Assembly: GCA_964016885.1 (NCBI GenBank) | Contig: OZ024741.1 | Location: 326,430,001-326,494,000 of the forward strand | From: Eledone cirrhosa | Taxonomy: Eukaryota | Direction: 5' to 3' | DNA length: 64,000 bases | Shown here: in pieces, positions 4,093 to 43,721 of the stretch | How the letters are laid out: the number at the start of each line of letters is the position of its first letter | Numbering within the stretch: position 1 is the stretch's first letter | The notes under the pieces: model-generated | The model's input: the letters and a program-made list of their open reading frames with translations, nothing else | What the model was told of the DNA's origin: nothing | The model's database searches: none | Position numbers and translations under genes: made by a program

Positions 4093-4264
4093 AATTTGTA
4101 TGTATGTATCTATCTATCTAACAATCTGCGTAGCTATCTATCTTCTTATTCCTCTCGAATTTTCTCTCCCTCAATCTCTTTCTCTGTGAAACGCAATCTT
4201 ACCTACCTTTTTCCATAAGAACTGGTATATGATAGTGCACATACTTAAATATGGAATGATACGC

Positions 4265-6150
4265 GATGGGAACCCCAAGAGCTCCGGTGGACAGGATGGA
4301 GAAGGCGTTTCCACGGAGGACGGCAAGGGAGACACGCTGGAAAAGCCATTCCAACCCGCGGGGTTCACACCTGTGGCTGGCCAGCTCAGCGCCTATGGTG
4401 TTGAGTAGGGAGGTAGCCCTAGGGCCGAGGACACCAGAACTCTCCACTGCCAGGGGTACAACCGCAAACCTATCGGAGAGCGACCGGTATTTGAGGAGTT
4501 TGACCTCCTCAGCTCGACATGCAGTAGAACATGGGTTAGTCGCAGACTGCACCAGGCTGCGACTGCAGAAAGTGTCGGTGCAAGTAGCATCCCAGACGAG
4601 GGGTTTTCCTCCGCGGAACTGGAAGATGGTCATGCCATCTGGCGTTTTGCCATCCCCTCGGTCCAGCCCCACCTGCTCGAGCTTGGAAGGGAAGCCCGCG
4701 GCGTCGAAGCCATGCTTTATGACCTCCTTGAGGGAAGCATGGCGTGGACGGCGGCCGGCAGTGTGGCGATAGGAAAGCGGGTGGAGGCCGAAAGTATCCA
4801 CGGTGGATCCGCAGCGACATTGGTGTGGCTCACAGATCCGAAGGCCGAGGCTCAAGGAATCGCCGATGCGCAGGCTATTGTTGTCTAGCTGCGTCCCACT
4901 GGCGAAGTAGGGCAGGCCATAGAGCCACACGCCACTGTGGTGTTTGGAGGCCGCACGAAAACAGGCAAGGCGGTGCTGGTCGAGCTGGGGCGTGAGTCTG
5001 TCTGGATGTCACCTCAAGTGCTTTGGGGGGACTTGACGTCAACAGGGGGATAAGGTGGAGGGACGTCTACTGGACTAAGTCCCAGCCGGTCCCACGTCTC
5101 ACAAGCGGCCTCACGTTCTCTGAACACAGAGGGTTCTATTTTGTTTTGAAGAACGTTGTTGACGAGGACGCGGCACGAGGTTATCGACGAAAGATACGCC
5201 GGCAAAGCCAGCGAGATAGGGGGCCGGAGGCCAAAGCCGCCATACCTGACATTGGCCTGTTGCCATCCAATGTCGTTAAACTTGACGTTGCATATCTCCT
5301 TGGCTGCTGCTCGGATACAATTATCGAGGTCAGCGAGAAGAGATGTGTGGGTGTAGCACGGAGCGCTGCGAAGGGTATAGATGAGCTTCAGCATGGCGAA
5401 GCAGTTCCTCAACAGAAAGAGAGCTGGGTGACCATCGATCAAGCCCAGTCGGCTCGTGAGCGTCTGGAGTTGTTGAAGCCTGGACCTGATGGTGGAGCGG
5501 ATGGCCGGGGGGTGGATCGGTGACCCGAGGATGAGAACATCCCCTTTGGGGGTCACCTGTACCTGGTGGAGAATGGACCGCACGTCTGAGACGGAGACTA
5601 CAAAGCTTTCAGCACCGTGGCTGACATTCCCCACCTCCGTCTTGGCCGAGTTGATCTGGAGGCCGATTTCTGCCAGGGCAAGAACCACCGACTGTAGGTC
5701 ATGGCCGACAGTCTGTACGGGCCCGCCCAACGTAGCATCATCCAGATACCAAAAGTTGATAAGGCCGCGATACTCCGGGCGATGTGGTCTATACCAAGGG
5801 CAAACACGAGGGATCCATAAGGGTCGCCCTGTTGGGCCCCAGTAGCCAAAGATATGACCGTATCAGCAGCAAGGAGCATGCTCCGGGCTCCATACGACAG
5901 GTAGGCCAGCTGGTAGGCAGAGGGGGCTTAGCTGAGGCAGGCATCGAGCAGATGGTTCCAGCGTAAGCAGTTGAAGGCATTCCTCATGTCAAGCTTGACA
6001 ATGAGGCGCCTGGAGTCCCTGGATGCTGGTTCTGCTGGGCAGCTGTTGAAGAACTGCCCGGTTGAAGGTGCCGCCCCCTTACAGCCACTGGACACGCCGA
6101 CACCCAGTTGCACCGGACTGAACTCCTGACCCAGTTCGGATGTTATGTAC
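4265..6150 (-). mobile_element. 5'-truncated CRE-like non-LTR retrotransposon (RT + C-terminal restriction-like endonuclease), frameshifted
   Basis: GC-rich island. RT motifs QLGVG, KLDMRNAFN, GAQQGDPYG and WYLDD are spread over several frames (5014-6113). ORF 4199-4930 has the CxC..H zinc knuckle, RH, PDG, WD and E..K..KY RLE motifs. Confidence 0.85.
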
Positions 6151-6783: not shown

Positions 6784-6959
6784 CACATACTTTATATATA
6801 TATATATATATATACATATATGTATATATATATATATATGTATATTTATATGGAACTCATTTAATGGAACTCATTTAACCATCTTTTGATCTTATATATT
6901 ATATATATATATGTATATGTAGTGAAAAATTGAACAGGAACAAAACAGAGAGGCAGTAC

Positions 6960-7287
6960 GAACAAAGGTTTATTAATTTCACGCTCTTGAAAGTGGGGTG
7001 GTGGTGGGGAACGACGTTTCGGGCATAAGCCCTTCTTCAGGTGAAAAGTGTGCGGGAAGAGAGTTCAAAGGGTGTGTAATGGAGTGGTGGAGAGACATAT
7101 AACAAAAAGGGGTGAGAGGAAATGGTGCAAATGAAATTAAAAATAAAGGCCTGATCAAAATAAAATTAAAATGGGGTAAAACAGGTGGTGGAAGGGTGTG
7201 GGGCATGTAGGGGTGGTGGCCGGTTGAGTGGGGAGAGGCAGACGGGGTGTCCGAGCGGGGAGGGCTGAAGGTGGTGTGTTTAGGTGT

Positions 7288-7324
<37 letters not shown>

Positions 7325-9400
7325 CAAGGGTTGGGGGAAGAACGGGGTTGCATGTTCAGGAAGAGGTGTGTGTGGGGTGGGGTGTTGGTCGGAGTGTGTG
7401 TGCGTGTGTGGATAGAGGGGTGGGGGAGAGCTTTCCGGAGGCTGAATGTGTAAATATGTGCTGGTACGCACGTGTTTGTGTGGTGTTTATGCGTGTTGTG
7501 GATGTAGGTGGCGTGTGGGAAAAAAAATGTTATGGGTGTATGTCTGGGGGTGAGTTGTAAAGGTAATTCCGTAAAAAGATGTGGTGGAATGCTGAATAAA
7601 ATCCTTGGGATGCGGTAGATTCTCGGGATCAAGGTTCACATATGTGTAATCCGTGAAGAGATTGGTCGGAAGAAGGGAGTTGTGGGGTGCGCGCGCAATA
7701 GGAAGTGGTCAGAGGGTCAAGGCAGGCGCTGGGTTGTGTGTCTGTGTGTGCGGGGAGGTGGTCAGAGAGGCATAGCAGCAGTAGGGTAGAATGGTAAGTG
7801 AAGAAAGTCGGTGTGTCAGTGTGTGCCAAGGTGCGGTGGACAGGGGAGAGGATGGGTAGGTGTGAAAGTTGGAGTGAGGAGGGGGTGTGTGTGTATTAGT
7901 AGAGGTGTTAGTGGGATGTGTGAGTGTTTGAGAAAGGGTGTGGGTGGAGCGGGGAGAGAAGGGTATGGGGGCCGATGGAGGGAGTGTAGTGTACTGGTAT
8001 GCGTGTGTAGTGAAGGGGGTGTTAGTGGGTGTTAGTATACTGGAGGTGGAGAAAGGGTTGAATGCGGGTATGAGTGGGGGTCAGTGGTGGTAGGGTGTGA
8101 AGAGTGGGTGGTGTAAGAGGGTGTGTGTGTTCGTGTGCGTAGGGTTCGGGGGCGTTAGTGATGTTAGTTGCGTGTAGAGTGGGTGGTGTAAGTGGGTGTG
8201 TGTGTTCGTATGCTTGGGGTCAGGGGGTGTTAGTGATGTTAGTTGCGGGGTGGTGGGGTGGATGTGTGGGGGTGAGGGTTAGTGGTGGTGGTAGGGTGTG
8301 TGTTTAGTGTGAGCGCGTGTATATATGTACCGGTGGGTGTATGCGTGTGATAAGGAGGGGGGAGGAGAAGAAGGGAGGGATGTTAGTATGTTAGTTGGGG
8401 AAGGGTGGTTGGTGGGGGTGGAGGTGTTAGTATTGTTAGTTGTGGGGTCGGCGGTGAAAAGGAGGATTGTGTTAGTGCTGTTAGTGGGGGATATGTGTGG
8501 GGGGACGGGGGCGGTCGAAGGCTAAAGGAATAAGTGTGGGGAGTTCAGGCCGGGGGGAGTGGGGGTCTGTAGGATGAAGATGGTTTGTTTTTCGACCTTT
8601 AGGAGATTGGCGGGTGTTCCGTGGCATTGGAGTAGGCCACAGACTGTGAGGTGGTGTGCGGAATGTCCAGGGGCACCAAAGTGGCGCGCGATGGGGGAAC
8701 TACAACCGAGACGAATATCCCGGAGGTGCTCAGTAAATCTGTCCGCCAGGCGACGTCTAGTCCGTAGACTAGGTTGGAGGAGGTGCACCGGAAGGCATGC
8801 AGGACAGAGAGAGTGGCCGTTGGGACCCTGGAAGGTGGTGGTGTTGGTGGTGTTGAGACAGGTGTTGCAGCGGGGCCTAAAACAGGGAAAGGAACCGGGG
8901 GGGGATGGCGTGGGTTGGCAGGTAGGGAGCTGTGGGCGAGGAAGGTGCGGAGATTGCGTGCGCGTTTGAAGGAGGGGAGTGGTGGGGCTGGGAAGATGTG
9001 GGAGGTGGAGGGGTCGGACTGGAGGCGTCGGAAGAGGCGGGGGATGGTGCGATGGATGGGTATGTTGGAGGGGTGGTAGATGATGGGGAAGGGGAGACGG
9101 TGGGTGGGTGTGCGGTGGTGTGGGGTGAGGGTGGTGGAGCGGAGGACAGCAGGGGCGCGGGTGAGAGCGGTGTGGACGAGAGAGGGGGGGTAACCTCTGT
9201 GGATGAAATGGCTTACTAGGGAAAGGGCCTGGGACTCAAAGTCAACATCTCGGCTACAGAGTCAGCGGATCCTGAAGAGATGGGAGTAGGGAATAGAGTG
9301 TTTAGTTGGGGTGGGAAGAGGTGAAGTCGATGTAGGAGTGGGAGTCGGTGGGTTGGAAGAAGGAGGAGGTAACGAGGGAGTGGTAAGAGGGGTCGAAGGC
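6960..9400 (-). mobile_element. Penelope-like element 1 (5'-truncated; GIY-YIG endonuclease + long C-rich 3' region)
   Basis: ORF 8522-8788 reads TRRRLADRFTEH...IARHF...GH...VEKQTIFILQT..PPGLN (GIY-YIG C-terminal half). It is preceded by the Cys linker PGSFPCFRPRCNTC. A hammerhead core lies at the 3' end. Confidence 0.8.
7011..7043 (-). ncRNA. Minimal hammerhead ribozyme core at the PLE-1 3' end (weak stem I)
   Basis: Minus strand: CTGAAGA-a-gggc-ttat-gccc-GAAA-CG-TC. Stem III is the palindrome ACGT and the triplet is GUC. Only 2 bp of stem I can form. Confidence 0.55.
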
Positions 9401-9406
9401 GACGGA

Positions 9407-12042
9407 ATAAATGGAATAGAATGAAACGAAATTTCATTTCTCACTCTTGGTACGTCACTTACTTAAATGTAAGTATGTATGTATACGTACATACATATAT
9501 GTATACAGACGTACAGTAGTATGTATATATACATACATGCACACATATATATATGCACGTATCGGTTTACCGAACATTTATTATAATGCTCGGTTTGTTT
9601 GTTTGTTTGTAAACAAACAAAGCTCGAATTACCCCGTACAGTGTTTAGGCAACCACGTCACCTTTTTTGTTCAACACTGACACAGGAACGATGTAATAGT
9701 TTCAAGCTTATTAGCTATTGTCAGCATCGTATACCTTCCTGCCAGATGGTTGAACGTCATAAAGTATATACTTTCCTTATGCATATTAACGGCTGAGCAG
9801 CCAAATTTGCATATCGAATGAGTTTAGTCAGCCGGGCGTACCGAAAGCGATAAATGGAATAGAATGAAAAGAAATTTCATTTCTCACTCTTAGTACGGCA
9901 CTTACTAAAATGTAAGTATGTATGTATGTATACGTACATACATATATCTATACAGACGAACAGTAGTATGTATATATATACATACATGCACACATATATA
10001 TATGCACGTATCGGTTTACGGAACATTAATTATAATGCTCGGTTTGTTTGTTTGTGAACAAACAAACAGCCCGAATTACGCCGCACAGTGTTTAGGTAAC
10101 CACGTCACCTTTTTGTTCAACAATGACACAGGAAGGATGTAATAGTTTCAAGCTTATTAGCTATCCTCAGCATCGTATACCTTCCTGCCAGATGGTTGAA
10201 CGTCTGAAAGTAAATAATTTCCTTATGCATATTAACGGCTGAGCACCCTCATTTGCATAGCGAGTGAGTTCAGTCGGCCGGGCGCACCGAAAACGATAAA
10301 TGTAATAGAATGAAAGGAAATTTCATTTCTCACTCTTAGTACGTCACTTACTTAAATGTAAGTATGTATGTATGTATACGTACATACATATATGTATACA
10401 GACGTACAGTAGTATGTATATATATATATATATATACATGCACACATATATATATGCACGTATCGGTTTACGAAACATTTATTATAATGCTAGGTTTCTT
10501 TGTTTGTAAACAAACAAACATCCCGATTTAGGCCGTATAGTGTTTAGGTAACCACGTCACCTTTTTGTTCAACATTGACACAGTAACGATGTACTAGTTT
10601 CAAGCTTATTAACTATCGTCAGCACCGTATACCTTCCTGCCAGATGGTTGAACGTCTGAAAGTATATACTTACCTTATGCATATTAACGGCTGAGCAGCC
10701 TAATTTGCATATCGAGTGAGTTCGGTCGACCAGGCGCACCGAAAATGATAAATGGAATAGAATGAAAGGAAATTTCATTTCTCACTCTGAGAACGGCACT
10801 TACTTAAATGTAAGTATGTATGTATACGTAATACATATATGTATACAGACGTACAGTAGTATGTATATATATACATACATGCACACATAAAAATATGCAC
10901 GTATCGGTTTACGGAACATTTATTATAATGCTCGGTTTGTTTGTTTGTAAACAAACAATTAGCCCGAATTACGCCGTATAGTGTTTAGGCAAACACGTCA
11001 CCTTTTTTGTTCAACACTGACCCATGAACAATGTACTCATTTCAAGCTTATTAGCTATCGTCAGCATCGTATACCTTCCTGCCAGATGGTTGAACGTCTG
11101 AAAGTATATACTTTCCTTATGCATATTAACGGCTGAGCAGCTTAATTTGCACATCGAGTGAGTTCAGTCGGCCGGGCGCACCGAAAACGCTAAATGGAAT
11201 AGAATGAAAGGAAATTTCATTTCTCAATCTTAGTACGGCGCTTACTTAAATGTAAGTATGTATGTATGTATACGTACATACATATATGTATACAGACGTA
11301 CAGTAGTATGTATATATATACATACATGCAGACATATATATATATGCACGTATCGGTTTACGGAACATTTTTTAAAATGCTCGGTTTGTTTGTTTGTAAA
11401 CAAACAGCCCGAATTACGCCGTACAGTGTTTAGGCAACCACGTCACCTTTTTGTTCAACACTGACACAGGAACGATGTACTAGTTTCAAGCTTATAAGCT
11501 ATCGTCAGCATCGTATACCTTCCTGCCAGATGGTTGAACGTCTGAAAGTATATACTTTCCTTATGCATATTAACGGCTGAGCAGCCTAATTTGCATATCG
11601 AGTGAGTTCAGTCGGCCGGGCGCACGGAAAACGATAAATGGAATAGAATGAAAGGAAATTTCATTTATCACTCTGAGAACGGCACTTACTTAAATGTAAG
11701 TATGTATGTATGTATAGAGACGTACATACATGCACATATATATATATATATATATATGCACGTATCGGTTTACGGAACATTTATTATAATGCTCGGTTTG
11801 TTTGTTTGTAAACAAACAAACAGCCCGCATTACGCCGTACAGTGTTTAGGCAACCACGTCACCTTTTTGTTCAACACTGACACAGGAACGATGTACTAGT
11901 TTGTTTGTTTGCAATAAATGTTCGGTAAACCGATACGTGCATATATATATAGGTGTGCATGTATGTATATATATACATACTACTGTACGTCTGTCTACAT
12001 ATATGTATGTACGTATACATACATACATACATACTTACATTT
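9407..12042 (-). repeat. Tandem array (~5.6 x ~445 bp) of a hammerhead-containing non-coding monomer with a terminal inverted partial copy; retrozyme-like
   Basis: Units begin (a)taaatggaatagaatgaaa at ~9407, 9850, 10296, 10748, 11190 and 11634. The array breaks at ~11900 and continues as an inverted partial copy to ~12042. Each complete unit carries a minus-strand HHR. Confidence 0.9.
11467..11525 (-). ncRNA. Type I minimal hammerhead ribozyme (best-conserved copy in the array)
   Basis: caggaa-ggtat-acgatg-CTGACGA-tagcttataagctt-GAAA-CTAG-TA-catcgt-tcctg. Stem I is acgatg/catcgt with a caggaa/ttcctg extension, stem III is the palindrome ACTAGT, and the triplet is GUA. Confidence 0.9.
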
Positions 12043-12186
12043 ATATATATATATATATATATGTAGTAGGTGAGTGTTATTGTAGCACAATAAAGCAATG
12101 CAAATATCGGATAAGTAGCACTCTACATTTTGTAGGATTGGAGTATAAATAATATAAGATCAAACGTTGGTTACAAGAGTTCCAAG

Positions 12187-12257
12187 TATTTTATTATGCG
12201 CATTTCAAAAACAAATATCATCATGGGATGATATCTGCGTTCTCATCAGATAAAATA
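12187..12257 (-). ncRNA. Type I hammerhead ribozyme in the PLE-2 pseudo-LTR
   Basis: tattttat-CTGATGA-gaacgcagatatcatc-ccat-gatgatatttgttttt-GAAA-TGCGCA-TA-ataaaata. Stem I is a perfect 8 bp and stem III is palindromic. Confidence 0.88.
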
Positions 12258-12768
12258 GGGAGACATGATATGCACCTTTAAAAACACTTGTGAGCAGTGA
12301 ACTTTTAAATCAACATATGAAAAATAAACTAAGATGGATATATGAGATTTGGAAAAAAATGAGGGGGAGGTAGTAAATGGTAAGGAAGAGGAAGAAAGAA
12401 AAATAAAGGATGGTGGGGTGGAGTATAAGAAGGAAGGATGAGAGAGGAGGAGAAATAAGTGATAGAGAGGGAGAAATAGCCTTTACAACTGAGAAAACAT
12501 TGTCTCACAGAGAGAAATTAAGAAACCGTTGTAAGATAATAGATAATTTCAAAGATTTTGAAATTAAAAGTTAATGAGGTTTATGCATGAAGAAAAAGGA
12601 ATTAAGAATAGTATTAAATTAAGGTTTGTATATTGAAGGGTTTAATAATATGTGCGGAAAAAAGAATTCATTAATATGTATTATTAAAATTAAAATATTA
12701 ATGGTATTAAGTATATAATGTGAAAGAAGGAGAAGAATAAATGAATTATGAACTTAGAGGAATTAGTA

Positions 12769-13140
12769 TTAGTTAGGGTTTAAGTTTGTTTTTATGTATT
12801 GTAATATGTAAAAGTAAATAGTAGGTTTAAAACGAGCACGGAAGGAGAGAAGAAAAAAGAACATTTAAGGAGGAAAAATATCTAACGTCAAAAATTATAT
12901 ATGTTTACGAACATTTTCTAATGGTAATATTATAATATATTAAAAAAGGAATTAGTTAGGGTTTAAGTTTGTTTTTATGTATTGCAATATGTAAAAGTAA
13001 AAGTAAATAGTAGGTTTAAAACGAGCACGGAAGGAGAGAAGAAAAAATAAAAATTTAAGGAAGAAAAAATATCTAACGTCAAAAAGTATATATGTTTACG
13101 AAAATCTTCTAATAGTAATATTATAATATATTAAAAAAGT
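12769..13140. repeat. ~183-bp direct duplication inside the PLE-2 3' region
   Basis: ttagttagggtttaagtttgtttttatgtattg... recurs at ~12769 and ~12952. Confidence 0.8.
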
Positions 13141-16100
13141 ATAGTTTTAATGGCCAATAATATGAGGAAAAATGGAAAAATGGATAATGCTGTAGTGAGT
13201 AATAATATGAATTGAGAAGTAATTGGGAAGAAAAAGTATAAATTAGAGATTAGAAATTAAAAAAGAAAAAAAGGAAGAAAGGAAAATGATAAAGAAGAAA
13301 GATAGGGGTTCATAACGACATAGAATGAGTAAATTGTATTATATAATATATAATACTGAAATAAGATAGAAAGATGGGTATATTTGTAAAAGATATAAAA
13401 GCCTTTGAGAAAAAGAAGATTTAAATTAATTAGGTATTGAGATATTAGCTGTATACTTTATGGAATGTTCTATGGGATTTATACAAGCAGAGCGAAAATA
13501 AATCCGTGCGTCTATTTATTATAGAATTGAAATTAGATATAATGGTATATTTCTCGGCTAGGCAGAGATTACATGTTCTAGATAGAGACGAATTCAGGTA
13601 AGGAAAGGCGGTGCAAACCTTCCTCCAAGAGATGTTATAGTTAATATTTTTGTCTTTTAAGGACCATATGAGTTCCGAGAGTGCCGTGTTAGTTCTTTTA
13701 AGTTGGTATTTAAAAGACAATTTGTGATTATAAAATCTATTTTTAATGGAAGTGGAAGTGGATCCGAAATAGGTAAAATAATTAGTATCAGTTATAACCT
13801 TACATTCATACACTAACTTTTTATCAAGACATTGGTTATTAAGAGGACATTTAGTTCTAACAGGGCAATTATAATTACGATTAGAGAAATTAACAGAGTT
13901 ATTAACAAGTGACCTATTATTATTTATAGAAGGAATTGGATTGGAGAAGTTATTTACGATAGGAACTATAGTTTCCTGATTTAGATTGGTATTGTGAACA
14001 TTCAACGAAGTTACATTTGATGTCGTATTTAAATTTACAGAATCTAGCCTAGAGTTAACAATGACGTCGGGATTACTGTTGCTATTATTATGACGCTCAG
14101 TGTTGGAAGGATGTAATTTATTATTTAATATTTTATTGTGGTGTTTAGAGATAATGTTAGAAATGTTGGAAGTGGTGGAATAAGAAAATTTGATTGTATG
14201 TTTGTTAAAGATTTTACTATAGATATGTGAGGGAGGGAAGCATTTATCTAAGGCCCTAAAGAATAGTTTAGGAATATTATTATTAATAGATAGAGAAAAA
14301 GGAATATTATACCAAATTATATTTTTGTATCTAGGTCTTTTATTTAAGTTATTTGAATGCTCATAATTAACTATTTTACTATAATACCTTCAATGATTGG
14401 TTTCCTTACTGTATTTAATTTTATCAGGATAACCGGCTCTGGAAAGCGCATTATTATAGTAATTGGCATTAGCGTCGAAGATATCTTTATTAGAGGATAT
14501 ATTTGAGATTCTTTTTTCAATATTACTGACTATAGCATCTTTAACGTTAGTGGGGTAGTTAGATTTAAAATTGACATAATTTAGACTCTCATTGTTTTTA
14601 TGGTAAGGGTAATATAGGCCAGTGTCAAGATTAAGGGATATATCCAAGAAGTTAGCTAGTTTGACGTTGTTGTCAAATTCAGTTTTAAGGTTATGGTGCT
14701 TAAATAGATCACGTGCATTGTTCTTAATGATATTAAGGTTAACTAAGTTGCAGTTTAAGACAGTAAAGAGGCCATCGTCACGATAAATTCCACCGCGAAG
14801 TTGAGGAATTTTCCGATTTAAAGAATGCAAAATAAAGATACCAATCAAATCAGTCAATTGCGATGAATCGGAGGCACCAATTGTGATATCAAAATTGTTG
14901 GAAGTATCAGCTCTAGTCTAATATTCATTGTTAAATTCCAACATAGTTTTTCTTGCGGTGAGAATGATGTAAAGTTCATCTGTAGTAATATTTAAATGCG
15001 AAAGGTAGAGCGTTGTTGAGGAGTGAAGGCGAAATAGAAGAATAGTAGCTGGCAATATCAAATTAAATAAATTTTTGTTTGTTTTTCTTATTCAGGTTAT
15101 TGAACCAGCCAATTACTTCAGATGTACCAATCCATAAATTTAAGTTAGAAATAGAGCAATTAGAACGAACCTGTCGGATAATTCTATCCAAGATGGCTTT
15201 ACTAACAACCCCCAGATCTGATTTGGAGGGGGCGATTAGTCTAACAGGCAGTTCCGTTCGAAAGTTACTTTTATGATACTTGAGATTTATCCTCGGAGTT
15301 CTTGGGAAGAATTGTTCGGTCTTTATCTCAATGCCAAGTTTAGACATAATCTCAGAAGCTTCCAAGTTTATAGATTCCAAATTGTCCTGGTTAGTTTTAC
15401 GATAATTCTTCCTTAGTTCCTTAAGGATAAAGTTATTATACTTATCTTTAGATACGCCATATAAATTATTAGTTTTGTCGGAGTGGTCTAAGACATTTTT
15501 AGATGAATTAAGGTTTAAAATCGTATTCCTGACATTTATAAGGTGCTCCTGTCCTCTATAAGGGTTTCTCTTGAATTTAAAACTTCTTATAATATTAGTT
15601 AATTCTTCCTCAAACTGCAGTAGATTTTTGTTGGAAGGAGGATTTCTTCTAGAGTTAAATAAATGATCAAAATAGTTATGTTCCTTAGTATAGAAATTTC
15701 GTTTTTGGCGCTGGTCATGGAAAAGAGCGATCCATCGAAGCCTTCTCACAAAAGAGTCAATTTTTTCAATCAGCTCATCCTTCCTACTTACACTCCTCCG
15801 CCACCATTCTTTATTTTTCTTTCTTCCTATATAATAAATATATATATATATATGTGTGTGTATGTGTGCGTGCGTGTGTGTGTGTGTATATGTAAGCGTG
15901 TGTGTTTATATATATATATATATATATAATTATTTACCGATTGTGTTGTTATTTCTGTTTTCCTTTTACATATATACAAATATATATATATATATATACG
16001 TGTGTGTGTGAGTGTGAGTGTCAACAAACAGGAAAATGTGAGACAGATAGATGTTTAAATTTAAAGATATAAATTACACTGAAATATATATTCTATTCAA

Positions 16101-27643: not shown

Positions 27644-27703
27644 TTCCATTTACCAGTGGTTTCTTAAAAGCAAAACATTTTGCTTTCAATCATCAGAATG
27701 AAA
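27644..27703 (-). ncRNA. Type I hammerhead ribozyme (PLE-4 pseudo-LTR family)
   Basis: ttcatt-CTGATGA-ttgaaagcaaaa-tg-ttttgcttttaa-GAAA-CCACTGG-TA-aatgga. All three stems pair. Confidence 0.85.
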
Positions 27704-29062: not shown

Positions 29063-30845
29063 TATATATATACATACACATACATACACATACATTTTGG
29101 TATGTGAAGGGTAAGGCAAAAAGAATATATGGGGGGGGGGAGAAGACATAGGAATAGGTGAATTATAAGGGGAGATAAGGGAGAAAAAGAATACAAGAGT
29201 ACAGAACGTAGATTCAGCAAATAAAAAAAACCGCAGTAGAAGTAAAGAGCAGAGAAGGAGTTCAAGGCGGTTGATTTATCATAGGAGTGTCAATCCAGTT
29301 ACAGATCAGATGTGATTTCAGATGAGGACAACATCTGAAGATCTCGGTTTTTGAGTTTTGGCAAGAAGAAGTGGCTCTCAAGTTTAGCAAAATCCTATAT
29401 TTTTCTGTGGTACACAAAGAACAATTCTTCGTGCCCCTTTGGTACTCCCTCGAATGGTCTAAGATAGACCAATCGATAGAGTACGGGATGTTACTATCCT
29501 TGAATTCCCACACCTTACTTGCGAGGGCCGTCGATGTTCGTTTATCGGAGTGCTTAAAAGAAGCGACATGTGAGTAAAATCTGGTTTTACACCTGTCCTG
29601 GGTCATGCTAACATATCGCTAACTCCTGGCTGGTTGTTGATTAACGGTGTTATTTCAGCCTCATAAACAACAGATTTGGTGTTACATTTACCCTGCAATG
29701 GGCATTCATCCGGCTTCCTGCCACTGCATCCCGGATTTGTTCTCGTATGATTTGAACTAGTGATCGTGAACTTCATAGATGGGCAACACGAGTAACTGAT
29801 CTTAACTACGTTCCTATTAAATATCTTATAATATCTATGATTAGGAGGAAAATGTTTGTCTAAGAGTTCAAGGAATTTCATTCCTACATTAGTTTTGACA
29901 GTTAGAGAGAAGGGGGTGTGAACCAAATAATTTTCCTTTTCCTGTTATTGTGGTTAGTTTTAGGGGGGGGGGAGTAGGTAAATAAAAAATGTTTTCTGTA
30001 AAACTGCTGTTCTTAAGGGCTTTATTATAATAAGGCGCAGCTTTATTAAAAATGTCTATAGACGAAGATAAGGTAGAAATCCTACTCCTAATGTTAGGAA
30101 TAAGATTATTAAAAACTATAGGGGGATGGCAAGACTCTTTGTGTATATACCCAAGATTTTCATTAGGTTTATGGTAAGGTTTAAAAGAGGCGGTAAGTAG
30201 ATCAAGATTAATATCAAGAAAGTTAGCATTGGTAAGGTTCGTATCTATAGTGATTTTAAGGTTAAGATTAGCAAAAGTATTGATTAAATCTTTACGGAAT
30301 TTATCAAGGTTATGGCTGTTGGTGGTATGAGAAACTGCCAATCCGTCATCACGGTATAAACCGATATTATGGGAAGGAAATTTCTCTTTGAGGGTGTGGA
30401 GAAGGAATAATCCTACTAAGTCACACACATCCGCACTGTCATATGAACCCATTGCAACATCAAAAGAGTTTTCAGGGTTTGACTTTTTAACCCAAATATT
30501 TTCATTAGTAAAGAGTAAAGTTTTTCTAGCATGAAAGATAATGTCTTCTTCTAATTTAGCAATATTAATGAAGGGTCTTGCAAAATCTAAGGCATTAGTT
30601 AATAAGGAAACAGTATTAGAGGGTTAAAAATCAACAATATCAAATTGGGTAAATCTACACTTATTTTTACCTTGTATATTATTAAACCAAGAAATAACAG
30701 AGTAAGTATTTAGCCACTGTAATAGGTCAGTGTTAGTTCTAATTTAGAGAATTTTTTCATTCTGATGATTGAAAGAAACTTTTTTTGCTTTTAAGAAACC
30801 ACTGGTAAATGGAATAATTGCCTTATGTTGTTTATTACATAACTA
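28925..30845 (-). mobile_element. Penelope-like element 4, 5'-truncated, with 3' pseudo-LTR and inverted partial pseudo-LTR at the 5' break
   Basis: ORFs 29889-30452 (MGSYDSADVCDLVG, GLYRDDG), 29603-29926 (CPLQGKC, VVYEA) and 29262-29606 (RFYSH, CSLCTTEK). 28925-29015 recurs inverted at 30752-30845. Confidence 0.9.
30756..30813 (+). ncRNA. Type I hammerhead ribozyme in the inverted pseudo-LTR of PLE-4
   Basis: ttcatt-CTGATGA-ttgaaag..gcttttaa-GAAA-CCACTGG-TA-aatgga. The 28953-29012 (-) copy has a GUG triplet. Confidence 0.8.
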
Positions 30846-34948: not shown

Positions 34949-35835
34949 TCAACTCTTTATTACTAACCCATGAAACGTCCCAGGATACCCATTCCATTTC
35001 ACTAACGATTTTGTTTTCCCTTTCTTGATGATCTCCTCTATTCTGTAGACTTCCTGTTTTGTTTTCTGTAACTCTTGTTCATAGAGCGTACGTTGGATCT
35101 CTTCCCCATTGTAGTCAGTTATCTTGTAGGTAACCGGTGTGGTGTTTTGCACTGATGTAATGGTAAAAACCTCTTCTATCGATCTTGGGGTATATCTTTT
35201 CTCAAAGATTTTCTTTTTCTTAGTAACCCATACTTTGTCTCCCACAGAAAAAAGATCATCAATAATCGTTCTTTCATCATGTTCAGGGTAACGGTTTCTC
35301 CATACCCTATTTTCATTGTTCTTCTTACTCGCTTCAACAGGCCTCATTTTAGTTGAATCCTTAGTATTATAGTATTGTTTAACCAAATCATAGAGTACAT
35401 TGATATACACTCTTGTAGAATTTGCTGAAAAATATCTAAACATCTTTTCCTTCATCGTTCTGTTTCATCTCTCAACCGAACTTGAGTTTTCCTCATTCTC
35501 ATTCGAATACACCTCAATCAGATCATTCACATTCTTATTCCAAAACTCTTTTCCCTTGCCTAACCACATCTTGGTTGGTTTGCGTTCCTTGAATATCTTT
35601 TTTAGTGCTTAGCAACTGATTTTCCTGTCTTATCTTTCAAAGGCACAAGCCACCCATATTTTGAGAAGATATCTACTACAGCTAAGATGTACTTAACACC
35701 CTTATTAAACTTTGTGGATGCTTGCATGTCAACTAGATGAGCAGTCCATATCTCATCAACACCATTCATCCGAACTCTTCTCTTCTTGAATTTTCTACAT
35801 ATTGGTTTATGCAATTTTTCTGCTAATGCTTGCAA
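34949..35835 (-). pseudogene. Retroviral-like (rve) integrase with C-terminal chromodomain
   Basis: ELH/KLHKP..., IWTAHLVDM, YILAVVDIFSKYGWLVPLKDK, VGDKVWV..K..FEK and YRIEEIIK...SLVKWNGYP. Frameshifted at ~35460-35600. Confidence 0.9.
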
Positions 35836-35850
35836 TCTCAGATGATGAGG

Positions 35851-36352
35851 TTATTCAAATCTCATCTTAGTCCCAGTAATATTATCAACAATAGATCTAT
35901 CCAACCTCTCTCTGAGAGTGGGGTTAACAATACCACCCAGTTCATCTCTCATATTTTTATCACGTACTTTATTTCTCGTCTTTGCGTCCTTGTTTTTCGG
36001 GTAACATAGATCATGATGATATGCAGCATTATCAACTCTGTTTATAGGCGTACTCCAATCTTCTGGTGTTAGATTTGGGCTTAGTCTTTTATTGAGTTTA
36101 GTACCAGGTCCTGTAAAATTGTGGCCAGGAAGGTGCATTTCAAAAGAGAGTGAATTTATTGCTCTATTCAATATGGAACCACCCTTTACATCTCCCTTCA
36201 GTGGGCTCACCCCGCTCTTCCTCACAAACTGAGTCCTTGTTACCCCGCATACAAGACATTTCCCCTTTTCATATTTCTCCTATTTTTAGATACAGTCTTT
36301 TGTATGCCACTTGTATCAGTGACATGTTTACATTTATCACAATTAATTTTTA
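35851..36352 (-). pseudogene. Zn-ribbon + parvovirus-type phospholipase A2 (PLA2X-like) virion protein
   Basis: HLPGHNFTGPGT (Ca-binding loop) and DNAAYHHDLCY (HD catalytic motif). An upstream frameshifted segment reads CDKCKH...CLVCG. VKGG/S is a candidate adenain site. Confidence 0.85.
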
Positions 36353-36380
36353 TATTTAAAAAATAAATATTCATATTAAA

Positions 36381-37165
36381 ATGGAAGTGAAAGATCTCTC
36401 ATGGAATGAAGTAACAACGAAACGGTTTAATCACTTGCTATTACCAAAAAGCATTAGAGGAGTGATCATAGGCACATCTGGTTGTGGTAAAACCACTCTT
36501 CTACTAAATCTATTACTACGACTAGGCTGGTTAGACTATAATAAACTAACTGTGTTTGGTAAAAGTCTCTTTCAACCTGAATATCGGATCTTCAAGAAAG
36601 CTTTCGAAGAAAAGTTACCAAAGGAAGCTATAATGGATTGTTTGACCTGCGTGATGAGGTAATGAGATTAGATGTTTCACAATCAGCTCTTGTTGAAGAG
36701 TGGGCAAATGAGATTAGAGATAAATCAGATATAGAATGCAGTTTTTATGAATCTTCGGAAGATGTGCCTGATCCGCGAGACTTAAGTTCTGAAAACAAGA
36801 ACCTAATGATTTTTGATGATCTCCTCCTAGAGAATCAGAACAAATGTGAAAGTTATTACATTCGTGGGAGGCATAGCAATGTAGATTGTTTCTACCTTTC
36901 ACAAAACTACTGCAAGCTGCTCCGCCAGACGATAAGAGAAAATGCAAACTTTATCTGCCTCTTCCCACAAGATCTTAAAAATATTAATCACATTTACAAT
37001 GACCATGTAAGCCAAGACATGTTTAAGGATGAATTTAGAAAGTTGTGTAAAATAGCTTGGGAAAAACCACATGGCTTTGTAGTCATTGACGTAACAAATA
37101 AGAAGCCTAATGGCAAATACAGGAGTGGGTTTGATACATTCTACATACCCAATAAAAAAAATTAA
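36381..37165 (+). pseudogene. FtsK/A32-like DNA packaging ATPase
   Basis: Walker A GTSGCGKT, Walker B LMIFDD, RGRH and YLSQ motifs. One frameshift at ~36640. Confidence 0.92.
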
Positions 37166-37182
37166 AAAAACATTAATAAAAA

Positions 37183-37917
37183 ATGGAAGCGTTACTTGAT
37201 AAAATAGCTCAAAACACAGAGCCTAAAAACTCACTTCAAATTGTTTAATCCTCCTATTCAACTTGATAAAAGAAAAAGTATGAAATAGCACTCGTTAACC
37301 TTGATACTTACTACTCTTTTCCAAATATTTACTCAACCAACAATTATTTTAGATGTTCACCTGACGGTGGCTCTTCGTGGATTGAAATTTATATACCTGA
37401 AGGTAGCTACGATATCGCAGATATCAATGATACTATTCAGCAAAAGGTGAGGCAAAACGGGCATTATGACAGTGCTTATGAGGATTATTATATTACAATT
37501 CCTACCACCTCAAGCACACTAACGTCTGTTCTCATCTTGGAAAATAAGTACCAAGTAGATTATAGGCAAACCAAATCGATTTCTAGTGTTTTAGGGTTTA
37601 ATAATATCATCTACACTCTTGGTTTTCAAGAATCAGAAAATGTAGTTAGTATCCTAAGCGTCAACAGCTTACTTGTTAATATCGACATCATCTCTGTCAG
37701 TTATGTAAATGGTTCTTCACAGAACACCATCTATTCTTTCTTCCCAAATGTATCCCCTGGGTATAAAATCGTTGAGACACCTGTAAATTTGGTTTATCTT
37801 CCAGTGACATTAGATACAATACACAGTCTTGAGCCATCACTCACTGACCAGAATGGGACACAACTTAATTTGAGAGGAGAGAAACTAACGATGAGATTCC
37901 ATATAAGAGAAGTGTGA
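37183..37917 (+). pseudogene. Minor capsid protein (penton)
   Basis: YEIALVNL.TYYSFPNI...IPEGSYDI.DIN in the upstream part. C-terminus PVNLVYLPV...LTDQNG..LNLRGE..TMRFHIR is typical of Polinton pentons. Confidence 0.8.
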
Positions 37918-37943
37918 TATAAAAAAATACTATCTAATATAAA

Positions 37944-38531
37944 ATGAGTCGTTACACAAATGTCAAACTTAATATATTTCCGAAGGGCAGAAACAAAAGC
38001 TGCAAAATGCTCCCCAAACTGATGGCCCAGTGAGTATACGTCTAGGTTATGAAGATTTAAATGGTGAGGATATCTTGGCACTTACACACTCCCAAGTGAA
38101 TAAGATATTTAAAGCATATGAAAAGTGGGAAAGGATCAACTATAAAAATGAGTAAGTCACAGTTAGCATATAATATGAAAGTTGAAGGGGGGTTTATAGG
38201 TGCACTTGCTGGATTAGCTGCAAGATTTTTACCTGTAATTGCAAAACCAGTCCTTCCAGCTGTTGGTGTTGGTGCTTTTTCCGGTCTTGCAAGCTCTAGT
38301 ATGCAGAAAGTAATGGGTAATGGGTTATTCCTTAAAAAGGGTGGATGTGTTTGCCAGATAGAAACTGATGGGAATTGGTTATATCTCGGTCCTACATCCG
38401 GATCTGGGCTTGAGTCTGTTGGTGATGGATTATATATGAAGAAGCAGGGCGGACTCTATGATGATAGGGGTCTGCTTTTGGGGCCTAATAGTCCATTTCA
38501 ATATATTCCAACCCTTGGGATGATTTTGTAA
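37944..38531 (+). pseudogene. Putative virion core protein (pX-like) with adenain cleavage sites
   Basis: VEGG/FIGALAGLAARFLP hydrophobic segment resembles the adenoviral pX GG/ILPLL tail. Repeated G.GL(F/Y) motifs. Frameshift near 38115. Confidence 0.55.
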
Positions 38532-38599
38532 GGAGGATTGTAAAACCATCTAAAGGTGAATGTAATATAGAAAATATATATGTTGCATTAAAATAAAAG

Positions 38600-38972
38600 A
38601 TGCCAGTTCACAAATTGGAAGAAAACCAGAAAGGACACCATTACGACGCCAACCACTAACTAAAGATAGATGGATGCAAAATATCTTCCTCAGAAGAAAA
38701 CACCAGTAACTTGGGAGATATATACTCAAGAGCAGATTAACATCACAGCAAATGGGGCTAAAATAGTGTAGTTGGGGTTTGGTGTTATGATGTCCAGAGG
38801 TATGGTGTTAACATCTTTAAAATAAGAGTTGAAATATAAGCGATGTAGTTTGCAAAATGAGACTCTTCTTGAGAGTGTTGATGATATTATAATTACTATC
38901 CAAATTAACTCAGATACCCCTATTATAATTAATGAAAATATCCCCCTATGTTATATACATTACATACAATAG
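38600..38972 (+). pseudogene. dUTPase-fold protein lacking catalytic motifs
   Basis: Hand translation: AKYLPQKKTPVTWEIYTQEQINITANGAKIV*LGFGVMMSRGMVLTSLK*ELKYKRCSLQNETLLESVDDIIITIQINSDTPIIINENIPLCYIHYIQ. It follows the length and hydrophobic pattern of trimeric dUTPases. Not in the ORF track. Confidence 0.5.
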
Positions 38973-39014
38973 GAGTGCTATATGATATAAAAAAAATTCT
39001 CACATATATAAAAA

Positions 39015-39662
39015 ATGGAATACAAAAATAAAACTGAAGGGGATAAGCAGTTGGTGCAGAATGAGCACCTGTATCCAATAATACTCCCTGCTCCTCTAGA
39101 TGAAGGGCACACTTATCGATAACAGAAGATAAATGAAATCCAGAAAATCCTCAAAGAAGAGAAAGATAAGCGAGCAACTCTAAGTAAGAAATATCATCGT
39201 GCTGTAAAAGTAATTGATAACATTAATGTAGGGCTTGTAACTGTTACTACAGGCCTCGGTGTTGCTGGTGTAGGTATTTTATCAACAATTGTTGCTGCCC
39301 CAGCTGTTATTGCTATTGAGGGAGTTTTTCTCGCTACTGGCCTATTTAGTGTTATTGGAAAATATAGGAATAAAAAGCTTAATTCAAAAGCAGAAAAGCA
39401 CGAAAAGGTAAAAGTACTTGCTGATGCTAAACTAAACACAATTTCCTCATATATCTCAAAGGCTTTGATGGATAACAAGGTAAGTGATGAAGAATTTCAC
39501 CTAATCATCAGCGAATTAGAAAAATATTATGTAATGAGGGATGAACTTAAGAAAAAATCAAGGAAGTATATTAATTATGAAATGCAAAAGACATTGATTG
39601 AACAGGGGCGTAAAGATGCTCGTGAGTCCGTTCGTAAGATGTTTGAAAAAAAGAATGTCTAA
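39015..39662 (+). pseudogene. Membrane-active coiled-coil/hydrophobic-hairpin protein (adintovirus 'gasdermin-X'-like)
   Basis: One frame with a single premature stop: LYP...YR*QKINEIQ..L..E...R..L.KKY, hydrophobic hairpin GLGVAGVGILSTIVAAPAVIAIEGV, then KHEK...LA..KLNTI...ISKAL.D..VSDEEF. Confidence 0.7.
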
Positions 39663-39762
39663 GTTGAAATTCGAGATAAAAATCGAGATAAAAATTAAGA
39701 TGAAAAGTGGGATGAAAATCGTGTCTACTATGACATAAACAAATCTAATCTTTAGTAAAAAG

Positions 39763-40602
39763 ATGTAATTTCTAAAGATAACAGACCCTAAGAAGAGGGA
39801 TCTAATTGTTGAAGAGTTTCTCAAAACAAAGAGAAAAATCCAGAATCAACAGCTCACTGAACGTATTGGCGAACAAGTTGCCTTATCTGAACTAACTAAA
39901 CACTTTAAACCTGTTACAGAAAGATCTAACTCAGAGAACCATGAGTGAGATTAAACCCATTAGGGAGGGTATCCAAGATCTACCTAAAGCAATAGCTTTT
40001 CAACAGTTTCCTGCTATTGAAGGATCAGAAATGGATGAAGAAGATAAACCTGAAATGATTGGTAACATAGCTGCAAATTATTTGAGAAAGTTTGCTACCG
40101 AAGATGCTGATAACACCTACGGAATATATGACGAAAATGGTCAGTTTTACATAGGGGATACTAGAGTTGGTGTAATTGGTGATAATATTATTGTTGGTGA
40201 AAAATAATATCAAGGTAAACCTGGTCTTTGGGAGCTAATCACCATGAGAACCCCAAGTGAAAAGGTATACACTGCTGAAGACTATGAAAACTATGCAGAA
40301 ATCATGGTGAGAACAAATGCATTGAGACAAGGTAATATCAAAGATAGTAAGACACCAAAAGCTAGCAAAGAGTGGAAATGGAAGTACTTACTTAAAACAA
40401 TATGGGATGAGAGGAAACAGTTTGAAGGAGAGGGTATCTCTAAACAAACTGTCATACTCCCCAGCGATCCCAGTGCATTGCTTGACACGTTTGACTTATT
40501 AATGGCGAGTAAGGCATAAGCAACACAGGTGTGAGAAATGAGCTGAAGAGGCAAAACATATTAGACACAAATACATATAAAAAATTAATGACTTCATTAT
40601 AA
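39763..40602 (+). pseudogene. Conserved Polinton/adintovirus protein of unknown function
   Basis: FLKITDPKKRD...FKPVT, DNTYGI...FYIG, G.PGLWELI and GEG...ILPSDPSALL..FDLL.AS. Several stops. Confidence 0.6.
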
Positions 40603-40607
40603 AAAAG

Positions 40608-41130
40608 ATGTTAGTTCCGAAAAATCGTGGATTTAAAAGGTTGTATGTGTATGGTGGTGCCAGAATCTTTGACGGCATTGCAAGCTATTTTTCGAGGCTA
40701 TTTACTAGCAATGCTGCGAAACAACTAGCCTCTACTGCTCTCGATGTTGGAAAATCAGCTGTTAAGGAGGTTGGAAAGAAAGCGGTTGATGCTGGAAAGA
40801 ATGTTGCACTAGATGTTGGGAAGAAGCTTATTGAGAAGGGAGTCACTAAAGCGCTCACCCCAAAGTCTCAGTCAATACTTCAGAAATATGTTGGCCTACC
40901 CTTGCAACAGTCCTCGCCTGATGTAATTGCAAAGAAATGTCAGGTTATTTTACCTTGACACAGGAGCGCAAAATATTAATTCAATGATAGATGGTTCAGG
41001 GATGATGAGGTATAGGAGTGCTGCTGGCGGAACCCTTAACCCACCGCCATTCACTCAACCTGTTGCAAATGCTATCACTATTCAAGACCTTGTCAGAAAA
41101 TTAAACGGATCCGGCGTGAAAATGGTATGA
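40608..41130 (+). pseudogene. Putative core/membrane-lytic precursor protein (amphipathic helix after GG site)
   Basis: VYGG/ARIFDGIASYFSRLF amphipathic helix, basic Ala/Lys repeats, and IDGSG and LNGSG candidate protease sites. One frameshift. Confidence 0.45.
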
Positions 41131-41184
41131 AAAAATATATCTCATGAAAATGACTTTAAAAAATGTGATGCGATAGAAAAGACA

Positions 41185-41544
41185 ATGGAATTCAGTCGTG
41201 ACGATTATCCAAAATACAACACAGCTTCTATCATCATCAAGAATGCCGTATTCAGTCTGAAGGATTGTGAGATCCTTGAAATTGAAGACACAAAGTATGA
41301 ACAACAGAAAGTGGTTGTGAAACTACCTAAACAAAAAGTTGATAAGATGAAGGAAATTGAAGAAGAGGTTAATCGGTATCTTGATGACCAAGGTTTTTAC
41401 AAGATGAAGCTTGTATATGGAAACAAGATTTATGCAAAAAATAAAAGGACTTCAACACCCCCAAAACACCTAGAGTGTATTAAGCTGAGGAGTGTGCTTA
41501 TCAATAATGGAAGTAAAACCTTTTTACAGCTTTGGGTAATGTAA
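41185..41544 (+). CDS. Hypothetical viral protein (119 aa, intact)
   Basis: Open ORF in viral gene orientation, preceded by a motif shared with the polB upstream region. Confidence 0.55.
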   Translation: MEFSRDDYPKYNTASIIIKNAVFSLKDCEILEIEDTKYEQQKVVVKLPKQKVDKMKEIEEEVNRYLDDQGFYKMKLVYGNKIYAKNKRTSTPPKHLECIKLRSVLINNGSKTFLQLWVM

Positions 41545-41678
41545 GAGTATGAGGAGGAGGCATCTGAGCATTCACTAAATTTGGCGAGCGAAAAAGTCAC
41601 ACGTAATAGGTTCAGCAGGTGTAAAAGTGAAAACCCTTACATCTGAGTTAAAAAATATTTTCTCTACATTAAAAAAAA

Positions 41679-42963
41679 GTAATAGACATTCTAAGATTTA
41701 CCGAAGCTCCTATGAAAGATGGGAGTATTGAAGAGTATCAACATCATGAGTATGAACCAATCACAGGAACAAATCTCAACAACCCTGGTGATATCCGTAT
41801 CAATATTGAGACACAAGATTCCTTTACCCACCCGAGTGAGAGTTATTTGATCATCGAAGGTCGCCTGACAAAAGCTGATGGAACAGCTTATGCACACGGT
41901 GATAATGTTGCTCTGACAAATAATGCACTTATGCATCTTTTCAACAACATCAAGTATCAACTTTCAGGCCAGGAGATTGAATCCATCTACTACCCAGGGC
42001 AGGGAACAACAATGCCCGGCTTGTTGAAATACCCAGGTGATTTCTCCAAGTCACAGGGGCTGAATCATCTCTGGTATAAGGATACAGAAGCCACAGCAAG
42101 AACTGAAAACAATTCAGGATTTAGTGTTAGACAGTCATATCTAATCCAATCTCCCGACCCAAAAGGAACATTTAGCTTTAGAGTCCCACTCAAGCACATC
42201 TTTGGGTTCTGTGAAGACTATGACAAGAATGTTTATGGATTGAAGTAGACTGTTACCCTCGTGAGAAAGTCTGACAATGATGCAATATTTAGAGCTGCTA
42301 CTGCTGATGCTGGTAAAATTACACTAGATAAAGTGTCTTTGTGTATGCCGCACGTGTTACCTGCTGATGCTGAAAAGTTTCAGTTCTACAAGACAATCGA
42401 ATCAAAGACTTCATTGCCAGTCGCATACATAATGAAGCAGTGTGACTCTATCTCAGTCCCTCAGTCAACTAGCTTTACATGGTGTCTTTCTATGAAATCA
42501 TCTCCAGAAAAGCCACGTTATATCATTGTAGGTTTTCAAACTGATAAATATGGGTGTCAGGAACAGAATCCATCAATCTTTGATAATGTGGCTATGAAAA
42601 ATGTGTATGTAATGCTGAACTCCACTAGGTACCCAGCAGTCGATTACAACCTTTCATTCCCCAAACAGCTATTCAGTCGTGTGTATGGTGATGCTGCTAC
42701 ATCGAGATTCAAGCTTTATCATATGGATGAATTGGTGTTCAACCCCAACATCACTCCTGATGATTAAAAGACCCTCTTCCAACTCGTTGTGTTTGATGTA
42801 AGCAAGCAGAGTGAGCGACTAAAGACCTCTGTTACTGACATTCTGATCAAGACACAGTTCAATGCTAATGTCCCAGCAGGTACTGAAGCGTTTGCTGTTG
42901 TAATTAGTGACAAGATGACTAACTTCCAGTCTGACGGGCACAAGATGAGGTGTTGTCTATTAA
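41679..42963 (+). pseudogene. Major capsid protein (double jelly-roll hexon-like)
   Basis: D.SIEEYQ.HEY.P..GTNLN..GDIRI.I..QD....PSESYL.IEG, LFNNIKY.L.GQEIE, VPLKHIFGF.EDY.K, EKPRYIIVGFQT, LNS.RYP and FDVSKQ.E. Stops at 42248 and ~42767. Confidence 0.9.
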
Positions 42964-43038
42964 GACTTTCAGGCTGGTTTACCCACAAATTAAAAGTTCT
43001 TGAAATGATTTAAGAAAAATGATATAATATATGAAAAG

Positions 43039-43510
43039 ATGGCAAAACTTCCTGCGTTGAGAGAGATTCTTCGTGAAAATAAAATTAAAGGTTCCTCTCA
43101 CTACAACAAGAAACAGTTGATTGAGTTGTTGAGACAAAAAGGATTGCTACCAGATGAACCGCCGAAGCCTGATAAACCAAATAAGGAGATTGATCCAAGG
43201 TTTAATAGATTGAAGACAGTCAGAACAAACTCCAAACGAGTTGTGTTCAAAAGTGTGGAAATGAGTGATGAGATTAAATTTAATATTTAAATGGTTGATG
43301 AGATTACATCAATCTACAAGGCAGCACAGTTTATTAACTAACCTCCATCAATAGTAACATTTTGGAATGGCAGGGTGTGGAACAAAACGTATGGGATTAT
43401 AATAGGGGAGACGGAGGAGCGAGGAGATGCTGAGGTTCATGATATTGTAATGGAATCAATAAAGAACTTGGAGCATGAAATTGATAAGGGGTATGATGAA
43501 GAGGAATGAG
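43039..43510 (+). pseudogene. Small nucleic-acid-binding protein (Rho-N/HeH-like + NUMOD1-like)
   Basis: LPALREILRENKIKGSSHYNKKQLIELL matches the HeH pattern. Downstream F..SIYKAAQFI resembles a NUMOD1 helix-turn-helix. Confidence 0.5.
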
Positions 43511-43721
43511 GGGTAACTTCGTTTCAAATATGTTATATAAGGTTGGCAGAGCCTCATATAACACTCCCCAATTTCGGGGAACTGAGAGAGGTTTACTTTT
43601 GCCTCACGTGTTGATTTCTTTAAATTGATTTCTTTAAATTAGATACCATGTCATGGTTTAAAATGTAAGAAAAAATGAAATTCATGAAAATGACTTAAAG
43701 AAAATAAAACCCCTAATAAAA

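Follow-up and report, generated by a model that had tools for sequence, protein, structure and literature searches.

The stretch of Eledone cirrhosa DNA that we analysed (64,000 nucleotides, hereafter the window) contains, between two damaged Penelope-like elements (PLEs), a direct tandem array of a non-coding monomer with one predicted hammerhead ribozyme per unit (Table 1). TRF described the array, at 9407-11902, as 5.7 copies of a 452-nt period with 90% matches. The monomer has a GC content of 36.5% and its longest ATG frame, found in the unit-5 dimer, has only 68 aa. No ORF of 90 aa or more occurs within the array, save one 97-aa low-complexity stop-to-stop frame, and this low-GC sequence neither codes for protein nor exhibits any LTR architecture. 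The original prediction had treated 9407..12042 as a single tandem array; this was correct up to 11902, but the remainder is an inverted arm of the same element, whose orientation had been missed. BLAST with one unit placed the inverted piece at 11913-12043, and its junction with the array lies near 11900. By their motifs, we take the left-hand PLE to be Neptune-like and the right-hand one to be Poseidon-like.

Table 1 Features of the array and its immediate neighbours in the window (clade names of the PLEs are presumptive; cuts are predicted).
Feature	Coordinates	Strand	Basis
PLE, Neptune-like, 5'-truncated and frameshifted; own hammerhead-like motif 7040-7013, own (TA)n end	6920..9406	-	
Direct tandem array, ~445-nt non-coding monomer, 5.6 units	9407..11902	-	TRF, BLAST, family ends
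Hammerhead 1, G8A and broken palindrome	9688..9730	-	pattern and pairing
Hammerhead 2, broken palindrome and one stem I mismatch	10134..10176	-	pattern and pairing
Hammerhead 3, core intact, with G·U wobbles in both helix I and helix II; predicted cut 10592/10591	10586..10628	-	
Hammerhead 4, palindromic helix III broken	11028..11070	-	pattern and pairing
Hammerhead 5, intact; predicted cut 11478/11477	11472..11514	-	pattern and pairing
Octamer motif ATGCAAAT	11589..11596	-	further exact copies 9805-9812, 10251-10258, 10703-10710
Sixth hammerhead, 3' half only, at the array's 5' truncation point	11888..11902	-	pattern and pairing
Inverted arm of the same element, to the 'short' end (231 nt past the predicted cut), then (TA)n	11900..12043	+	BLAST
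(TA)n tract, insertion target and 3' tail of the right-hand PLE	12042..12062	.	
PLE, Poseidon-like, broken; own hammerhead 12249-12195	12060..15905	-	

As originally predicted, each unit has one type I hammerhead on the minus strand; five motifs are complete, and of a sixth the array contains the 3' half. The defects that had been listed were all found (units 3 and 5 intact, G8A in unit 1, a broken palindrome in unit 4), but the list was incomplete, since the palindrome is also broken in units 1 and 2, the latter having a mismatch in stem I as well. The two intact units are not adjacent, two consecutive complete motifs being the criterion for an 'active' copy in Li, Clavereau and Pollet (2026, bioRxiv 10.64898/2026.07.22.740005). 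With only hammerheads 3 and 5 intact, the window array would at best release a dimer of ~886 nt. It is a decayed copy. In other loci of the family, such as L183 and L196, more than one intact motif is present.

The motif combines a 6-bp helix I, CUGANGA, a U·U mismatch, a 4-bp helix II capped by a loop of 4 nt, GAA, the ACUAGU palindrome and an A at H17. Judged by its predicted helix lengths, it is the canonical metazoan type I form of Cervera and de la Pena (2014; PMC4209133), defined there by a helix I of 6 bp, a helix II of 4 bp and a helix III of 1-2 bp with a palindromic loop. The label 'minimal' given to it at first was a misnomer: the minimal form in that paper lacks helix III or loop 3 and has a long helix II and a short helix I. 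The U·U mismatch at the base of helix II, present in 199 of the 203 distinct copies, departs from the conserved G10.1-C11.1 that the same authors give as usual. The covariance-model check suggested with the original prediction yielded nothing in its favour, as the Rfam hammerhead models had no match at E≤1 over 7000-15000, nor at E≤10 over 11440-11560; the Rfam matches that did appear were to miRNAs, driven by microsatellite sequence, and to snoRNAs, by chance and below the gathering score.

The claim that the hammerhead exceeds chance was nevertheless borne out. A 34-nt core pattern had 2,515 exact matches in the 3.0 Gb of genome surveyed and its reversed control none, and across 42 copies of three subfamilies (40 of 75 candidate copies plus two window units) 97% of the cells pair, against 29-45% for slid structures. 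Among 94 copies from loci chosen without regard to the hammerhead, 62 have a motif intact by every criterion. Of 312 columns, 27 distinguish the subfamily majorities, all of them outside the core and helices II-III, and the third pair of stem I is A-U, G-U or U-G depending on the subfamily. This covariation is, in the aligned sequences, a single line of evidence: one stem I pair that tracks the subfamilies. A satellite of the ordinary kind, or a repeat derived from a DNA transposon, that resembled hammerheads by chance would agree with the lack of an Rfam match and with the contribution of local duplication to the window array (see below). However, such a repeat accounts poorly for the full topology in each unit, the pairing kept across subfamilies and the polar ends typical of target-primed reverse transcription, and we consider it extremely improbable and largely refuted.

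Computed energies indicate that closing the 1-bp helix III within a monomer costs 5.4 kcal/mol, while self-pairing of the palindrome contributes -4.8, which fits cleavage as a dimer, as with the axolotl motifs that share these weak features. One axolotl hammerhead with the identical U·U cleaves, and does so better as a dimer (PMC7229834). Three natural monomers folded as circles gave z scores from -5.1 to -7.1 (25 shuffles each); their antisense strands also folded well (z from -4.9 to -5.7, 25 shuffles each), and the 81-nt hammerhead region alone was no stabler than its shuffles (z -0.7 and +0.4). As eight of nine Xenopus retrozyme dimers are reported not to cleave in vitro, the predicted activity of the hammerhead described here should not be assumed.

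The octamer ATGCAAAT ends 111 nt 5' of the predicted cut. It is exact in four of the five units spanning its position, 98% conserved across family copies and located inside a predicted hairpin, a placement that may point to a structural role. In newts, satellite 2 has an snRNA-type promoter with an octamer. Retrozymes, according to one review, seem to have no promoters.

Dispersed copies proved numerous, in line with the expectation that the element is not confined to this locus. A 289-nt piece had 2,585 candidate places in the genome, and of the 40 that were scored the 39 others were 97-98% identical and spread over many contigs. The junction between the element's 'long' end (see below) and (TA) had 1,497 exact matches, with none for its reversed control. 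A sister subfamily (L249-L278), with a period of 425-433 nt, is commoner than that of the window: a 21-nt motif had 5,574 matches (reversed control 0), being part of a 30-nt pattern that was matched whole four times. By eye, the hairpin just 3' of the sister subfamily's hammerhead (q30-46, where q numbers positions from the predicted cut) stays paired despite several changes. Copies sampled in order of position, in two partly overlapping samples that lie wholly within the initial ~175 Mb of contig C1, differed by a median of 3.8% from the family majority (152 pieces of mixed subfamilies). Two other organisms (B and C, runs X4 and X6) yielded 8 and 6 pieces at ≤95%, too few to date the family. 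At most loci the insertion is short, and 68 of the 86 lack a complete unit between cuts, which places the window array among the longest seen. A longer array of the family, L122 (G000:C1:70073205-70079238), has at least eight units, runs past the edge of the locus and carries array-specific variants.

On every family feature that can be tested in sequence, the element is a metazoan non-LTR retrozyme. The kind is known, and what is new is a member in a lineage without a report that we could find: a search of the literature, as distinct from repeat databases and with the supplements of PMC7229834 and Li et al. 2026 outside its scope, returned no report of cephalopod retrozymes or of the pairing of long and short ends in retrozymes. 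An octopod host agrees with the hemocyanins of the genome, which has 39 matches to molluscan hemocyanin domains in tandem clusters; one unit scores 854.9 bits against the octopus chain 1js8_A and no more than 733.8 against a unit of the squid protein 6r83.

The most distinctive property of the family lies in its insertion ends. In 87 position-ordered loci, 134 of 156 3' ends fell at two sites, 70 at q200-237 and 64 at q275-290, and TA-rich DNA followed 57 of the 70 short ends and 54 of the 64 long ones (111/134) versus 5 of the 22 other ends. The precise ends are q231 (short) and q287 (long), 56 nt apart, and both read CATTTA; the sister subfamily ends at the identical two sites. By contrast, 5' starts are scattered along the monomer. 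Copies are thus not freely circularly permuted, as had been expected of them, at their 3' ends. A head-to-head inverted arm was present in 51 insertions, 11 of them unclassifiable; the 40 classifiable pairs comprised 34 long with short, four short with short and two long with long (p=4e-6). A second sample, for which the long end alone served as anchor (90 places out of the first 100 listed, 87 of which could be aligned; partial overlap with the first sample), contained 55 loci with an inverted arm, ending at the short site in 47, at the long one in one and elsewhere in seven (47/48 classifiable). The three unaligned loci among the 90 are short or deleted copies of the retrozyme. Overlapping duplicates (L035, L036 and L057 for the end count, additionally L042 for the pairing and 5'-start counts), the window copies L001 and L061, and BLAST hits in microsatellite only were left out. 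The window array ends at 9407-9408 with the long end, 287 nt past the predicted cleavage site, and its inverted arm with the short end at 12043, so that it corresponds to one complete insertion of the standard type.

These ends recall those of PLEs, in which an inverted 5'-truncated copy is described, with a tail often present at a single end (Craig et al. 2021, PMC8557442). The reverse transcriptase (RT) of one Poseidon element, PAc, is reported to start at two internal sites that delimit the tail, and the protein, a predicted dimer, to cut both strands of AT-rich DNA and extend them (Frangieh et al. 2024, PMC11167929). The Penelope-type features (two alternative 3' ends, an inverted 5'-truncated arm and a microsatellite target) are all present in the retrozyme family. 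Together with dispersal and read-through of the predicted cut (see below), they support the proposal in the original prediction that a non-autonomous tandem element is moved by a Penelope-like RT, as far as genomic copies can indicate. The 3' region of the right-hand PLE also has two ends leading into (TA)n, in all 27 rows listed (duplicates and the window included), its long end coinciding with the end of the query. In this Poseidon-like 3' region (window 12062-12270; L039, L143, L237) the two ends lie ~82 nt apart; the region is present in pairs at several loci and is possibly another non-autonomous derivative. A 191-bp direct duplication occupies window 12768-13139 within the 3' untranslated region of the same element.

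Such likeness raises the question of whether the monomer is simply the pseudo-LTR of a PLE. For the two neighbours this, a refuting finding foreseen in the original prediction, was ruled out: both have their own, different hammerheads, and none of 29 other Neptune-like copies carries the monomer at the point corresponding to the junction in the window, where their coding sequence continues. A broader version would have the monomer as the pseudo-LTR of an autonomous PLE family outside our samples, the copies being 5'-truncated fragments of tandem pseudo-LTR transcripts with no independent RNA replicon. Each insertion feature is indeed a PLE feature, and among 57 Xenopus retrozyme families 24 are reported to match transposable elements, 21 of the 22 elements involved being PLEs; our ORF search used six fragments from the window's two PLEs as queries and covered flanks of 1.5-3 kb. 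Within that range we saw no continuity of the monomer with an RT/GIY-YIG ORF. Only 4 of 90 end-anchored loci had a PLE ORF upstream in the same orientation, and all four were set off by (TA)n and other sequence. Moreover, copies longer than one unit run into another monomer and not into coding sequence. With the differing hammerheads of the flanking PLEs and the 29 Neptune-like copies lacking the monomer, this makes an origin as a pseudo-LTR improbable in our view. PLE fragments of several families do lie near other retrozyme copies, in either orientation, a clustering explained by the (TA)n targets that they have in common. In Pfam, six ORF fragments from the window matched no family and three further proteins gave only one weak RVT_1 match; a homolog search gave three unnamed proteins.

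At this one locus, the array and the Neptune-like fragment could also be a single chimeric insertion, made by an RT that jumped from Neptune RNA to the long start site of the retrozyme; Neptune would then be the mobiliser. There is no (TA)n at the 9406/9407 junction, which coincides precisely with the long end. This end TTCCATTTA is similar, over a short length, to the 3' ends of Neptune-like copies TTCCATTA, and the same order of elements recurs at L063. However, at L063 (TA)n and other sequence separate the two elements, and the retrozyme likewise abuts Poseidon-like fragments (L100, L016), as shared (TA)n targeting would predict. In addition, non-CpG divergence from the family majority is 5.8% for the Neptune-like copy versus 1.8-4.9% for the retrozyme units (the indel-prone columns q74-100 and q128-232 dropped for the latter), and the Neptune-like copy looks older than the array in this comparison. 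Contigs of run X1 have TA-rich loose ends at 9407. No X1 or X5 contig was listed across the junction, which weighs weakly against a chimera. Overall, we consider it unlikely, if less so than the pseudo-LTR origin.

The copies also carry information about their template. Among 87 long-end copies, 40 cross the predicted cut into the preceding unit and only one starts within 5 nt of it; likewise, 2 of 214 5' starts lie at the predicted cut. Such read-through points to a template that was probably circular or an uncleaved multimer, and the data fit both alike. It might be, then, that this is a non-autonomous Penelope-type repeat spreading through linear read-through multimers, with a slow or vestigial hammerhead and no circle. 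The absence of a pile-up of 5' ends at the cut and the U·U in helix II would suit this, as would the inactivity of most Xenopus dimers and the preference of PAc, for which unprocessed RNA is described as the dominant template and the ribozyme as dispensable for insertion (PMC11167929). Yet the subfamilies do not differ in the core or in helices II-III, and the sole stem I change keeps pairing; the loci without a complete unit between cuts make multimeric sources a minority; and the axolotl hammerhead with U·U does cleave, better as a dimer. We hold spread by linear multimers with no circle to be very improbable.

At sites polymorphic among subfamilies, neighbouring units match each other more often than expectation (846 of 948 observed versus 666), as do inverted arms (735 of 897 versus 634). 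In the window, units 2-6 share one rare variant, four of these a second, and smaller subsets share others; the first two do not occur in the terminal unit, the inverted arm also lacks shared variants, 50 variants are private, and units 1 and 2 have the broken palindrome in common. This pattern is not expected from pure rolling-circle copying of one molecule, so that such an origin is not established for the window array, to which local duplication or a change of template has probably contributed, judging from these variants.

We therefore weigh the evidence in favour of the following reading, which we judge highly likely: the array is one insertion of a non-coding, predicted-hammerhead family of several thousand copies residing in TA microsatellites, and was probably copied by the RT and endonuclease of a PLE from circular or uncleaved multimeric RNA. 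By analogy with known retrozymes, tandem transcripts would be cut by two hammerheads paired through the ACUAGU palindrome, and a host ligase would close the monomer into a circle of ~445 nt. A Penelope-type enzyme would then cut both strands of a (TA)n tract and prime cDNA from each strand at one of two RNA sites, 231 and 287 nt past the cut. These cDNAs would run round the circle or along the multimer, halt at random points and be joined head to head. Part of the length of the window array probably derives from later local duplication.

A more far-reaching version, possible rather than probable, would have the element as a self-standing circular RNA parasite of octopods without any parent pseudo-LTR, carrying both Penelope RT start sites; one enzyme dimer would prime both strands at the same (TA)n break from two different sites, 56 nt apart, which would explain why nearly every inverted insertion has one long and one short end. 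The element may also carry its own octamer-type promoter. It would then offer a minimal substrate, ~445 nt long, for studying the second-strand step of Penelope transposition, and would show directly from genomic sequence that retrozymes are moved by Penelope enzymes.

Since retrozymes are known in many animals, another family is unsurprising in itself. Like the metazoan non-LTR retrozymes of PMC7229834, this one has non-coding tandem units with GC below 45% that each carry a type I hammerhead, a copy number in the thousands and a highly paired predicted circle. Its helix III resembles that of HHR_Amex1 (one pair and a palindromic tetraloop) and the U·U base of its helix II that of HHR_Amex2, both weak features being united here in one motif. 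Its monomers of 425-447 nt are longer than the ~170-400 nt given there and contain internal microsatellites. The elements tested in that work came from coral, mussel and axolotl, whereas the octopod one is known from DNA sequence only, and the fixed paired ends and inverted arms are not among the features described in the portions of that paper we draw on. The vertebrate retrozymes of Li et al. 2026 are likewise tandem type I hammerhead repeats co-occurring with PLEs, with a length range of 51-972 bp that includes the present monomer, in a sample without molluscs. The link to PLEs differs: from co-occurrence and pseudo-LTR homology those authors proposed PLEs as likely mobilisers of retrozymes, whereas here the link comes from insertion architecture and no parent pseudo-LTR was found.

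With the pseudo-LTR/tail system of PLEs (PMC8557442, PMC11167929, PMC4209133) the family shares an inverted 5'-truncated arm, a tail that may be present at one end, targets in microsatellite or AT-rich DNA and two internal RT starts 3' of the hammerhead; it differs in having no ORF, a tail of 56 nt instead of 30-40 nt and a canonical instead of a minimal hammerhead. Chlamys elements such as MRC1 (PMC8557442) are also non-autonomous, of PLE type and inserted as multicopy head-to-tail arrays. However, their 3' end is usually similar to that of an autonomous family, and they belong to a clade described as mostly devoid of hammerheads, whereas our element has a hammerhead and no matched parent. 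What the family adds is an insertion record, with the PLE-specific tail and inverted arm, the strict pairing of long with short ends and the read-through of the cut site. Read from genomic copies, end pairing and read-through connect a retrozyme with Penelope-type priming in a more direct way than arguments from co-occurrence or homology do. Two questions, which enzyme mobilises animal retrozymes and how PLEs prime both strands, become testable with a short RNA.

The window contains several other mobile elements. On the minus strand at 4199-6100 lies a broken non-LTR retrotransposon with an RT; its C-terminal frame, which had no Pfam match, presumably encodes a restriction-like endonuclease. 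ORF fragments at 34949-46743 include integrase, ATPase, capsid-like and DNA polymerase B-like frames, which we take to be of Polinton/Maverick type. Helicase and Rep fragments on the minus strand at 50285-53842, with a 69-bp coding tandem repeat at 53601-53833, are presumably Helitron-like. Two type I hammerhead motifs of another family, at 30762-30807 (+) and 27651-27696 (-), lie in inverted orientation on either side of a Penelope-like RT fragment (29889-30623). Elsewhere in the genome, the (TA)n tracts that house the retrozyme also contain clusters of at least five other hammerhead families (L003, L005, L011, L019, L045, L109 and others), nearly all of which have an A at the cleavage position; PLEs or retrozymes with hammerheads thus seem to be plentiful in it.
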